Shown: positions 1,715-25,135, numbered from the stretch's first letter. The stretch is DNA of 64,000 bases from a virus (IMGVR_UViG_3300031237_000273:2579-66578); one strand, 5' to 3'. Numbers and translations are program-made. Notes: a model not told the origin generated them from the sequence alone.

Positions 1715-1968
1715 GTCAGCTTAGGGTTGACTGCTGCCCCCGGCGAGAGGCAGCAATTGGCCAATAGCGCCTCCCGCTCAGCAACTGCTCACGACCCAGC
1801 TATGTGAAAACGCATGCATCGTTTCGATGTCTGCATTGCTGTGCAAAATCCGCCAGCATTTGGTTAATCCGCAGACCTGGAATTTGCGTAGGATCGCGAT
1901 TTCCATTCCGTCTTTGACTGTCAAACCTGCTCTAAAACGTTTTCACACTACCTGGACCTAAAGCGGAC
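1715..1968. repeat. Array of three 24-bp palindromic sites (34-bp period), third interrupted by a MITE
   Basis: Cores GGGTTG 1724, TGGCCA 1758, CGACC 1792, each flanked by GNCNGC-like/GCNGNC-like arms. Confidence 0.75.
1797..1954. mobile_element. MITE (158 bp)
   Basis: TIRs cagctatgtgaaaacg / cgttttcacactacctg; GACC duplication; inverted homolog of 21318-21476. Confidence 0.8.
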
Positions 1969-2032
1969 GCTCCTGATAGGCACCCTCGGGTGCTAGACTT
2001 GCGCTTTTGCCCCTACTCCAAGGAACTGTTGC

Positions 2033-4012
2033 GTGAATACGGAAAATCATTCCCAGACGGCCGCCTTTCTCTGGTCGATTGCCGACCTGCTGCGTGGTGA
2101 TTTCAAGCAGTCCCAGTACGGCCGCATCATCCTGCCATTCACCCTGCTGCGGCGCATGGAGTGTGTGCTGACGCCGACCAAGGATGCCGTGATTCGCGAG
2201 TTCTACGCCCAGGAAGGCCGCCCGGACACCGTACGTGAAATGTACATGCTACGTGCAGCAGGTGGCCTGCAGTTCTTCAACGCTTCGCCGCTGACTCTCG
2301 GCACTCTGTCCGATACCCAGACCTCGGCAGACCTGATGAGTTACGTGCAGTCCTTCAGCAAGGACGCACGCGAGATCTTCGAGCACTTCCACTTCGAGGA
2401 CTTCGTTCTACAATTGGCCAGCGCCAACTTGCTCTATCAGGTAGTGCAACGGTTTGCTGCCACCGACCTGAGCCCCGAACGCATCAGCAACTTCGGCATG
2501 GGCATCATCTTTGAAGAGCTGATCCGCAAGTTCGCGGAAAGCTCCAACGAAACCGCGGGTGAGCACTTCACCCCGCGCGATATTGTGCACCTCACCACTT
2601 CGTTGGTGATCACCGATCAGGACCACAAACTCGCGCCCAACAGCATCGTCACCATCTATGATCCAACCGCGGGTACGGGTGGTTTTCTGTCCGAGGGTGA
2701 CGAGTACATCCAGTCCATCAGCGAAAAGGTCAGCGTGTCCCTGCACGGACAGGAACTGAATCCCGAGTCCTATGCCATCTGCAAAGCGGACATGCTGATC
2801 AAGGGCCAGGACGTGATCAGCATCAAGCTCGGCAACACGCTGTCCAACGACCAACTGGCCAACAAGCACTTCGACTTCATGCTCAGCAACCCGCCGTTCG
2901 GCGTGGAATGGAAGAAGGTGCAAAAGCAGATCACCGACGAGCACAGCCACAAGGGTTTCGATGGCCGCTTCGGCCCAGGTCTGCCACGGGTGTCCGACGG
3001 TTCGCTGCTGTTCCTCCTCCACCTGGTCAGCAAAATGCGTGACCCGCGCGACGGTGGCTCGCGCATCGGCATTATCCTTAACGGGTCGCCGCTGTTTACC
3101 GGCGGTGCGGGCTCGGGAGAGTCGGAGATTCGCCGCTACCTGCTGCAAAACGACCTAGTGGAAGCCATCGTCGCGCTGCCGACGGACATGTTCTACAACA
3201 CCGGCATCGCCACCTATGTGTGGATACTCAGCAACCACAAAGCGGCTGAGCGCCAGGGCAAGGTCCAGTTGATCGACGGCAGCCAGCACTACGCCAAAAT
3301 GCGCAAGTCGCTGGGCAGCAAGCGCCAATACATCACTGAGGATCAAATCAGCGAGCTGGTGCGCCTGTATGGCAGCTTCGAGCACACCGCGCAGAGCAAG
3401 ATCTTCCCCATTGACGCCTTTGGCTACCGGCGCATCACCGTTGAGCGCCCGCTACGGCTAAAATTCCAAACCAGTGCCGAGCGCATCGCTAAAGTGCTGG
3501 AAGAAAAAGCCCTGCAGAAACTCGACAGCGCCGCTCAGAAACAACTGATGACCGCCCTGCAAGCGATGGACGCAAGCCAACTGCACCGCAACCGCGAGCA
3601 ATTCAGCAAACTGCTGAAAAAAGCCCTCACCGCGCACAGCGTCATCCTGAGCACGCCGGAGCTAAAAGCCCTGCTCAATGCACTGAGCGAGCGCGACCCC
3701 GAGGCGGATATCTGCATGACCAAGGGCCAGCCGGAAGCAGACGCAGGACTGCGCGATAACGAGAACGTGCCGTTGGGCGAGTCGGTATACGAATACTTCC
3801 AGCGTGAAGTCATCCCCCATGTGCCGGATGCCTGGATCGACGAAAGCAAAACCGATGCTCAGGATGGCAAAGTCGGCATTGTCGGCTTCGAGATTCCCTT
3901 CAACCGGCACTTCTACGTATTCCAGTCGCCGCGCCCGTTGGCCGAAATCGACCGCGACCTGAAAGCTTGTACCGACCGCATCAAACAAATGATTGAGGGG
4001 CTGTCGGCATGA
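2033..4012 (+). CDS. hsdM: Type I restriction-modification methyltransferase subunit M
   Basis: GTG start; [10 protein letters not shown]-terminus, [16 protein letters not shown] (motif I), NPPF (motif IV). Confidence 0.97.
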
Positions 4013-5370
4013 GCTTGCTTGCATATCAGAAGCTGAAACCGTCAGGTATAGAGTATTTGGACGGAGTTCCAAATGACTGGTCATTAAAACGACTTGGCGA
4101 TCTTGTTGCTTTTGCTCAGGGCAAGGCGCATGAGCCATATATTGACGATGATGGCGACTATATCTGCGTTAACTCTAGGTTCGTTTCGACGTCGGGGAGA
4201 ACGATTAAGACGTGCAGTATCAATCTGACCCCTGCTTCGTTAAATGACATATTGATGGTAATGAGCGACCTGCCCAATGGGCGGGCGCTTGCTCGGGCAT
4301 ATTACGTTGATGATCACGGTAAGTACGCCGTGAATCAGCGGGTGTGTCGAATCACGGCAGAAAAGGCACATCCTCGTTTCTTGTTTTACTTGTTAGATCG
4401 TCACCCTGGACTTATGCAGAATGACGATGGCGTGCATCAAACCCATCTTTCAAATGCCGATTTTCAAAAACTAAAGCTCTATCTGCCATCAATTTCAGAA
4501 CAAAACCAAATCGCACGCTTTCTTGATCACGAAACCGTCCGCATCGACGCGCTGATCGAAGAGCAGCAGCGCCTGATCGAATTGCTCAAGGAAAAGCGCC
4601 AGGCCGTGATCTCCCACGCCGTAATCAAGGGCCTCGACCCTACGGTGCAGATGAAAGACTCCGGCGTGAAGTGGCTAGGCGAGGTGCCGGCACATTGGGA
4701 AGTGACACCCCTGAAATATGTGGTTAGCAATCTAGGACAAGGATGGAGCCCACAGTGCGATAACTATCCAGCTGAAGATGGCGAATGGGGGGTATTAAAA
4801 GTTGGATGTGTAAATGGTGGCCAATTCAATGCTGGTGAGAATAAGCATCTGCCAGTTGAGCTTAAGCCAGATGAGGAGCTAGCAATCAAGCAGGGCGACT
4901 TATTGATATCAAGGGCAAACACCAGAGAACTGGTTGGCAGCGCCGCTGTTGCCGACAAAAATTATCCGCGACTAATGCTGTGCGACAAACTTTATCGATT
5001 GCGCTTGAACATGGAGCGAGCTACTCCCGAGTTCTTAGCTCTCTACCTCAGATCTAGCGCCCCTAGAAGTCAGATTGAATTGGCCGCAAGTGGCGCAAGT
5101 GACTCGATGCAAAACATCTCGCAGTCAGTCGTAATGGATATGACTCTTTCCTTGCCGCCACTTGGCGAGCAGGAGGAAATTCTGCGGTTCCTCAGCGTCA
5201 TACTGAAAAGTTCCGATGACTTGGTTGCTGAAGCCACTAGTCAGCGCTACCTGCTCCAAGAACGCCGTTCCGCTCTAATCTCCGCCGCCGTTACCGGCAA
5301 AATCGACGTACGTGGCTGGCAGCCATCAGCCACTGCGACATTCCCTGAATTAGCAGAAGAGGCTGTGTAA
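4009..5370 (+). CDS. hsdS: Type I restriction-modification specificity subunit S
   Basis: Two variable lower-GC TRDs separated by conserved EQ..IA.FLD...[17 protein letters not shown]-terminal [18 protein letters not shown] overlap with hsdM. Confidence 0.97.
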
Positions 5371-24205: not shown

Positions 24206-24213
24206 TGTGGGCT

Positions 24214-24903
24214 CTATTGTTTTAGCCCAATTTCTTTTAATGCATCATGAACACTGCTCATGCGTTTTGGTAAATTTTCTTCACTCATTGAATCCGGCAG
24301 TTTCTGCAGCTTGAAGGTTTTATATTTTTCCGTTGCAGGTATGAATAACTGCTGTACCCATATGGCCATTCCTGGTTGTCCATTTATGTTAATATTCGGG
24401 TTTACTCCCATTGCAACATCCCCCGCAACCTTAGCTACCCACTCTACTTTTCCGTCTTGAGTTTCTACTTCTACCGGTGGATCCTCTCCTAGGTATAGAG
24501 TTACTCCATCCCATGGTCCAAAGAAGAAATGGTAGACGCCGGGTTCCGATATGGTGAACTCAAATTCTACTGATTTGTATTCAGCGGTTGCGTCGGATAT
24601 CCGCATTTTTATGATTTCTGCATTCTTTACAACTCCGCTCTCTAAGCTGGAGCTATTTACAACACCTGCTACCAGTCTGGTTGCACTAGTTACTAGAAGT
24701 GGAACTTCTGTTTTGTAAGTAAATTTAAAAGTTGTAGGGGTGCCGGGAGCCTTGGGTTCTAAAAATGCGGAAGCAAGTCCGGCGGTTCCAAAACCAACGC
24801 CCAGATTTTTATCAATTAGGCTGCCTCCGTGCCAAGGATTACCCTTGTGAGCCAAGGCAGGTACGGAACACATCAGAATTAGTAACGCGACTAGTATCTT
24901 CAT
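24214..24903 (-). CDS. Exported protein with mature N-terminal His (putative partner of the di-heme enzyme)
   Basis: MKILVALLILMCSVPALA|HKGNPWHGG; FEFTISEPGVYHFF Ig-like motif; 8-bp gap to the next gene. Confidence 0.8.
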   Translation of the reverse strand: MKILVALLILMCSVPALAHKGNPWHGGSLIDKNLGVGFGTAGLASAFLEPKAPGTPTTFKFTYKTEVPLLVTSATRLVAGVVNSSSLESGVVKNAEIIKMRISDATAEYKSVEFEFTISEPGVYHFFFGPWDGVTLYLGEDPPVEVETQDGKVEWVAKVAGDVAMGVNPNININGQPGMAIWVQQLFIPATEKYKTFKLQKLPDSMSEENLPKRMSSVHDALKEIGLKQ

Positions 24904-25077
24904 ACTTCTATCCCTGATAGCTGAAAAGTCAATTGACTAGGAAGCGCTGCTAACAGCATTGATACTAGCGGCCTCCTTAGTGTAGTGCGCGTACGAAATC
25001 CTGCAAATAGCTAAGGAGTCAGCCTTCGAACTTCTGCTGAGCAGACACCGTGCTAGCTATTTTTGGGCTTCGGCTAT

Positions 25078-25135
25078 GACCGCTTTTGGCCGATTGCTGC
25101 CTGTTGCGAACGACTGCAAAGGGTCGGAACGGATC
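25078..25135. repeat. Pair of 24-bp sites (34-bp period)
   Basis: Cores TGGCCG 25087 and GGGTCG 25121. Confidence 0.8.

Follow-up and report, generated by a model that had tools for sequence, protein, structure and literature searches.

Repetitive extragenic palindromes (REPs) have been described as specific targets of insertion sequences (ISs), among them ISPsy8, ISPpu9/10, ISPa11 and IS1397, with short duplications at the point of insertion, and the authors of that survey tie such targeting to genome plasticity (Tobes and Pareja, 2006, PMC1525189). In Staphylococcus, hairpins are the target of IS1272, an IS1182-family element, which also mobilised a gene next to it as TnSha1, with one IS copy and a look-alike end; the same article cites a review according to which some IS1182-family members target palindromes (PMC4923244). 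Here we examine a 64,000-nucleotide stretch of viral DNA (IMGVR_UViG_3300031237_000273:2579-66578; "the window"), part of a 66.6-kb record classed as provirus. An original prediction, made from the sequence alone, had taken a set of short palindromic sites between positions 1715 and 25135 for the recombination sites of a new non-integron cassette system. We find that these sites belong to a low-copy, clustered repeat family across Pseudomonas, with the characters of REP-like IS targets plus miniature transposable elements with inverted repeats (MITEs). They are probably palindromic landing pads for two distant IS1182-family lineages and their MITEs, and not cassette recombination sites. On this reading, the proposed cassette system gives way to a concrete mechanism, a sequence-defined palindrome that would attract two distant IS1182-family transposases together with MITEs.

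The pads and the REP targets are alike in being intergenic palindromes with one fixed insertion point and a short direct duplication, and in both cases unrelated or distant transposases share that point. They differ in the families involved, which are IS3, IS110, IS4, IS256 and IS5 in the portion of the REP survey available to us and IS1182 here. They also differ in abundance, with 157–938 REPs per genome against at most 15 pattern matches for the pads, which are clustered and hold nested MITEs (PMC1525189). In IS1272, as in the two elements described below, IS-X and IS-Y, a transposase of the IS1182 family has hairpins or palindromes as its target. However, IS1272 is reported, in the text available, to show no primary-sequence specificity, to delete part of its target and to make no duplication, whereas the pads have a consensus and a 4-bp GGYC duplication in most of the IS and MITE copies considered below (PMC4923244).

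IS1182-family elements and MITEs at the site cores

The sites occur singly, as 24-bp palindromes, or joined in a 56-nt imperfect palindrome recovered by iterated profile search. From either end of this double unit inwards, an outer arm, a core and an inner arm lead to a conserved loop of 10 nt (TGTCGCGAAG) at its centre. Next to many units stands one or the other of two companion motifs, which are the ends of two miniature elements, MITE-C (159 nt) and MITE-D (178–180 nt). Copies of both are many across genomes (85–97% identity), and MITE-D recurs at 85–93% identity in many genomes and also on Pseudomonas plasmids. Their length excludes a transposase, and we class both as non-coding on that ground.

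The parents of these MITEs are autonomous elements. Inverted ends of MITE-C type, about 1.66 kb apart in several genomes, bound a 1.68-kb element (IS-X) that encodes a protein of 476–492 amino acids, and MITE-D-type ends about 1.59 kb apart bound a 1.61-kb element (IS-Y) that encodes one of 465 amino acids. Both proteins carry DUF772, DDE_Tnp_1 and DDE_Tnp_1_6 domains. The IS-X and IS-Y transposases pass the NCBIfam model for the IS1182 family (NF033551) at 465 and 415 bits, against a cut-off of 270, and are 24% identical to each other. Since the ends of MITE-C and MITE-D, which in these families measure 17–20 nt, are common to transposase-encoding autonomous elements, the two are MITEs of IS1182-family elements. 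A likening of the MITE ends to those of the IS6 family was dropped once these parents were found.

Flanks of 35 IS and MITE copies place the insertions within the palindromes. The flanking 4-mers are identical in 29 of the 35 (17 of 20 for IS-X/MITE-C and 12 of 15 for IS-Y/MITE-D), mostly as GGCC but also as GGTC or GACC, and all insertions read sit at the central GGYC. Beyond the duplicated bases, the left arm bases C, G and C at -8, -6 and -5 are present in 31, 31 and 25 of the 35 copies, and the right arm bases G, C and G at +5, +6 and +8 in 27, 34 and 35. The two arms occur together in 14 of these copies, compared with 87 of 26,326 (0.33%) background GGCC, GGTC or GACC 4-mers in the same loci. 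On reading of the flanks, the ISs lie inside double units or inside plain 24-bp palindromes. When MITE-D is taken out of the window at 8689–8868, a complete double unit is restored. The target is thus the palindrome CNGC-N4-GGYC-N4-GCNG, preferred by IS1182-family elements. Because identical 4-mers flank the IS and MITE copies and the arms lie just beyond them, each core is a target-site duplication of 4 bp, and the arms represent one target that has been split in two. A related IS with a 69% identical transposase also shows GGCN duplications.

Of this arrangement the window itself contains the passive parts alone, namely its sites together with MITE-C (three copies) and MITE-D (one copy), and no transposase. 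One MITE-C copy, at 1796–1954, has ends of the CAGGCTGTGTGAAAACG type and differing flanking 4-mers (CGAC/GACC), and is 76% complementary to 21300–21473. The other two, at 17663–17821 and 21318–21476, have GGCC on either side by repeat comparison, alignment and flank reading. The MITE-D copy (8689–8868, 180 nt) has ends related to GATTCTGTTGAAAAAGTCGG and lies between GGCC at 8685–8688 and GGCC at 8869–8872. Repeat comparison and alignment also showed a partial MITE-C copy at 630–703. A search of the contig found no homologue of either IS transposase. Across Pseudomonas, IS-X homologues (E<=1e-40) are present in 139 of 401 species genomes, several of them within a few kb of listed site matches. 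In a hand tally of 40 of the 401, the first 20 genomes listed with IS-X averaged 4.3 site matches and 20 listed without it 1.15, the former group including one genome (G001) picked for its high count.

Other Pseudomonas MITEs have been described as TIMEs, which are Tn3-derived, can bracket and move gene segments, and are reported in an account that names plasmid pQKH54 (PMC4133298). MITE-C has in common with them its genus and that IncP-1 plasmid, on which a MITE-C copy adjoins a double unit. As described in the text available, TIMEs measure 262 bp, with 38-bp Tn3-type ends and 5–6 bp AT-rich duplications (PMC4133298), and none of these features is found in MITE-C or MITE-D. We accordingly rejected a TIME or Tn3 origin of MITE-C, given its 17–20 nt ends and GGYC duplication. 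On another plasmid, pPL2 of Pseudomonas silesiensis, MITE-C and MITE-D directly abut each other near heavy-metal and disulfide-bond genes. In one genome (G002), at position 111–125 of at least 11 contigs, there is a motif resembling the end of MITE-C (GACTGTGTGAAAAC). Its place, 111 nt in from many contig ends, points to an IS of high copy number, with related ends, at which the assembly is broken.

The repeat family in the window and across Pseudomonas

All 21 cores listed in the original prediction are present in the window, each with a G.C.GC-like arm 3 nt to its left. The 34-bp spacing proposed for the paired and triple cores holds throughout, and the linker between them (GCTGCC-10 nt-GGCWGC) is real. 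The 24-bp form GNCNGC-N3-core-N3-GCNGNC was borne out in part. Its half-site, GNCNGC-N3-BGGYCR, is clearly enriched, with 19 occurrences in the window against 3.66 +/- 2.01 expected (19 was reached in 0 of 100 shuffles), and 17 of these fall within the first 25,266 positions. The literal two-armed motif, with a 6-nt core, gave 14 matches, of which the listed sites account for only four (1715, 22696, 22990 and 25078), the remaining 10 being GC-rich sequence within 29–56 kb. That an inverted pair stands around each cargo block is uninformative: every junction is palindromic in its own right, so that two neighbouring junctions will always present inverted halves.

A profile built from five junctions also recovered 11282–11337 and 22989–23045, and had no match at E<0.5 beyond 25.2 kb, in the phage part. 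The first array (1715–1797, minus strand, E 5.4e-13) has three sites, with cores at 1724, 1758 and 1792. At 8607–8688 two double units have a common middle core (cores 8616, 8650 and 8684; E ~1e-12 on both strands), and an outer arm displaced by the MITE-D insertion follows at 8869–8891 (minus strand; profile, and half-site at 8868–8882). Another double unit occupies 11282–11337 (minus strand, cores 11290 and 11324, E 8.1e-07). Single sites are found at 12461–12484 (core 12470; core check and half-site scan) and at 18752–18775 (core 18761), the latter by a weak profile match as well; weaker ones at 19013 and 20770 rest on the same three lines. On the plus strand there follow a double unit at 22662–22720 (cores 22671 and 22705, E 1e-14), a three-site array at 22956–23046 (cores 22965, 22999 and 23033, E 4.6e-06) and a double unit at 25077–25135 (cores 25087 and 25121, E 6.2e-14), which is the last site ahead of the prophage.

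In Pseudomonas at large, a 24-nt pattern allowing up to three mismatches matched 283 of the 401 species genomes, with a maximum of 15 matches per genome, while the reversed pattern gave 0–1 matches over the same genomes. The tallies over 401 genomes take in four flagged as unpublished (G104, G156, G375 and G378), which bear no claim of their own. A pattern scan of species genomes returned at least 120 stretches; among the matches listed, 22 stretches bear a Pseudomonas name, and the profile upheld 21 of these together with eight others, mostly contigs of metagenome-assembled genomes (MAGs). Two contigs binned as Saccharibacteria and Chitinophagaceae MAGs (L051 and L063) hold good copies of the Pseudomonas unit and are probably mis-binned Pseudomonas contigs. 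In five genomes, the pattern matches fall into few clusters per genome, inside which the profile detects units every 0.5–5 kb, about two to three times more than there are pattern matches. Since match counts per genome are low and the matches clustered, in variable regions, this is not a high-copy REP, the distribution that the original prediction had named as telling against it.

Closer in description are the R-family repeats of Pseudomonas fluorescens, hairpin-forming, MITE-like intergenic sequences, some of which share inverted repeats with strain-specific ISs, and which were proposed as drivers of rearrangement (Silby et al., 2009, PMC2718517). One of them, R178 (101 bp, with internal 11-bp inverted repeats and 18, 28 and 9 copies in three strains), is close to the double unit both in how many copies there are and in the 11-bp repeat within it. 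By this description, R178 may be the double unit. Target duplications and module boundaries, both seen for the pads, are not described for the R-family in the portion of that paper available to us (PMC2718517). A literature search with four unit stretches found no paper, and one by words, for palindromic cassette systems of Pseudomonas other than integrons, gave nothing relevant by title or abstract.

Module boundaries and competing explanations

The original prediction proposed to see whether cargo breakpoints fall at the cores; homology does break at the sites far more often than expected. Blocks of 0.4–7.7 kb, shared between species at 88–98% identity, stand in otherwise unrelated contexts, and two modules occur in opposite order in two species. 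Sites contain 25 of the 94 block ends, where 1.6 would be expected, and 31 ends (3.6 expected) come within 30 bp of one, under a null of random and not intergenic positions and with small counts of breakpoints. A larger set has 36 of 429 unique block ends in or next to a unit; 23 of the 36 lie at the two cores +/-3 nt, six in the conserved centre (positions 18–39) and none in the loop. Junction alignments show that the outer arm stays with the module and the partner past the core changes. The genes so bounded are ordinary accessory genes, including LysR with a major facilitator superfamily transporter, hydrolases, NUDIX and methyltransferase genes and others. Two indels inside one shared block (between loci L123 and L137) are deletions within genes, and we do not count them as site events.

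The clearest cargo in the window is a type I restriction-modification (RM) system, with hsdM, hsdS and hsdR at 2033–8570 on the plus strand (by Pfam), between two site arrays. Its homologues in three other species begin at 1961–1965, a few nucleotides past the core at which MITE-C ends. On the right, homologues in four species stop at 8625, 8636, 8656 or 8695, which on reading places one stop after the first core, one in the linker and two after the second core. Window blocks 21492–22500 and 22704–22952 likewise recur elsewhere with ends at sites. The pads would mark the points in Pseudomonas genomes at which accessory modules are broken off and joined anew; in this window, such modules include a type I restriction system that neighbours a prophage.

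In two of the species with RM homologues (L160, G171:C1; L161, G292:C197) the module adjoins a related prophage, with homologues of this prophage's genes, at other positions relative to the phage, which suggests that prophage flanks carry the RM system as a passenger able to move. Among homologous RM systems, hsdM and hsdR are 82–92% identical and part of hsdS (~4012–4498) has no match, as expected of swapped specificity domains.

These boundaries could be accounted for as follows. IS-X, IS-Y, MITE-C and MITE-D insert at the central GGYC and duplicate 4 bp; each insertion would leave site-like halves on both sides, so that insertions may nest and pile up and turn some intergenic spots into mosaic arrays. 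Transposition, IS- or MITE-mediated deletion or inversion, and recombination between repeats could then shuffle the neighbouring modules, and module homology would end at the cores because of such transposition-linked rearrangement or repeat recombination.

Several results weigh against this landing-pad reading. Among the junctions and end pairs read, no gene module is flanked by element-type ends plus duplications. The eight proposed cargo blocks are putative mobile units at most. One genome per species was compared, and no pair of empty and filled sites was seen. One of the four right-hand RM breakpoints lies in the linker rather than at a core, and nine of 12 related RM loci have no site within ~1.5 kb of hsdR (E<=0.1). 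The double unit is itself not accounted for by the IS1182 insertion model. Its inner 30 nt are flanked by identical 4-mers in only 14 of 66 units (GGCC/GACC being the commonest pair), and among the pattern matches listed there is no autonomous element with double-unit-type ends. Finally, units were retrieved with a left-half pattern, which inflates the apparent conservation of their left half.

A further step, which we hold to be doubtful, is that the pads and the IS1182-family transposases together form a system of gene-module capture and shuffling, in which any segment between two pads could be moved in trans into another pad. If so, module movement would be TnSha1-like or pseudo-compound and, without an integrase, would build integron-like accessory and defence arrays on plasmids, on chromosomes and in the flanks of prophages. 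Should the pads guide where new genes land, they would be of use in foreseeing hot spots of gene flux and would offer a defined target for asking how the little-studied IS1182 transposases choose palindromic DNA. A composite-transposon reading of the modules was rejected, as the two long-range end pairs found (L122, 15540–17295; L127, 8529–9917) lack identical flanks.

An origin of the 56-nt double unit as a decayed micro-MITE, or as a back-to-back end relic of a third, rare or extinct IS1182-family member, would make every part of the mosaic IS-derived, and seems to us unlikely. Its inner 30 nt plus 4 nt equal the 34-bp period, and its conserved left half starts right after GGCC, as do the ends of IS-X and IS-Y, with a GATT start like that of IS-Y. 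Conservation is also lopsided, with the left half and loop at 90% or more and the right half far less, but this is partly due to the retrieval pattern. The scarcity of identical flanking 4-mers around the inner 30 nt speaks against such a relic, as does the lack, among the pattern matches listed, of any inward-facing pair of unit ends at IS distance.

Dedicated site-specific cassette recombination, in which an unlinked tyrosine or serine recombinase would cross over in the core of the arm-core-arm site, appears improbable. The 9-6-9 arm-core-arm geometry falls within the size range of simple recombinase core sites, and the pile-up of breakpoints at cores, the opposite order of two modules in two species and the left half of a site, which stays with its module while the partner half changes, would all fit. 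However, no recombinase recurs near the sites in 49 loci, where LysR-type regulators (21 open reading frames (ORFs) in 15 loci) are the sole family found in more than five. P4-type integrases lie within ~12 kb of only about half of the clusters, and we rejected an integrase link on that count. A serine recombinase acting on a res site, suggested by three sites at 34-bp spacing, was likewise set aside, with no PF00239 match in the contig or in G001 and G002, the two with most pattern matches among the five genomes searched first. The elements that do sit at cores carry DDE transposases and make 4-bp duplications. The dedicated recombinase and the integron- or pdif-like logic of the original prediction thus yield to an IS1182-family DDE transposase encoded elsewhere in Pseudomonas as the enzyme acting at the cores, and its alternative suggestion of scars is supported, the sites being scars and targets of DNA insertion.

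Integron attC arrays and the pads are alike in holding small accessory modules between imperfect palindromes of ~55–60 nt, and in that the modules recur elsewhere with breakpoints at the palindromes. Unlike integron cassettes, the pads have no linked intI integrase or attI, and the unit consensus lacks the R''/R' boxes of attC (RYYYAAC...GTTRRRY, in a hairpin of 57–141 nt). The palindrome also does not travel with the module, homology stopping at its near edge, and palindromes lie in both orientations relative to genes. The block 8684–11290 had been predicted to hold attC cassettes; a crude hairpin scan for these boxes over 1–30 kb, this block included, gave no candidate. Short sites or mosaic palindromic motifs also stand at the module junctions of pdif modules, of the bacterial interspersed mosaic elements (BIMEs) of E. 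coli and of the Neisseria intergenic mosaic elements (NIMEs). By eye, the pads bear no resemblance to the dif consensus and show no 11-6-11 arms of the pdif/Xer kind, a 28-bp site with 11-bp XerC and XerD arms around a 6-bp spacer. They differ from the E. coli BIMEs in their low copy number and in that the inserted motifs are MITEs of identifiable ISs.

We also give little credence to the units being REP/REPIN-like hairpins spread by REP-associated tyrosine transposases (RAYTs), or selected terminators or protein-binding sites, with IS insertion and homologous recombination as secondary events. Of 76 units, 68 lie between genes, and ~60% of flanking genes read toward the unit, on either side; arm coupling is weak (covariation 0.174 vs 0.146 in shuffles, a value reached by 2 of 500 shuffles). 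Against this, the eight RAYT (Y1_Tnp) loci of four genomes have no unit within ~2 kb (E<0.1), and none of the 401 genomes holds the hundreds of copies of a REP. The stem has conserved mismatches, with C.A in 40 of the 66 units and columns 20/37 unpaired in 36, and direct reading of the sequence shows no T-run 3' of the stem. The breakpoints avoid the best-conserved centre, which argues against plain homologous recombination. Readings as a sigma-54 promoter or a LysR operator were dropped, the spacing being off relative to the consensus and the units having no orientation bias relative to flanking genes.

Genes and repeats around the sites

The first 25 kb of the window, where the listed sites lie, is non-phage DNA, after which a prophage of 60% GC begins. 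Beyond the RM genes, 8.7–12.3 kb holds genes without known function. The core of a P4-type island follows on the minus strand. It encodes an AAA_25 protein, a zinc-finger protein of the CHC2 type and, at 15411–16724, an integrase that adjoins tRNA-Leu (16885–16971) and is the only tyrosine recombinase found within the first 30 kb. Small genes without known function, and one for a cytochrome c peroxidase, continue up to 25.1 kb. Rfam matched tRNA-Leu alone in the window and nothing in the MITE and IS loci tested.

Dozens of Pseudomonas species share, at 89–99% identity, a stretch of 215 nt beside the tRNA-Leu (17000–17214), in which no gene is called by ARAGORN or by Rfam. Within it, 28 nt (17167–17194) are 86% like the 3' end of tRNA-Leu. 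A small ORF of ~75 amino acids, with no Pfam match, is present in three diverged direct copies of 80–87% identity (17442–17741, 21097–21396 and 25409–25609). A MITE-C comes after each of the first two, the prophage begins with the third, and homologues at 82–85% identity occur in many Pseudomonas genomes. The three copies may be relics of prophages or islands stacked tandemly at one attachment site.

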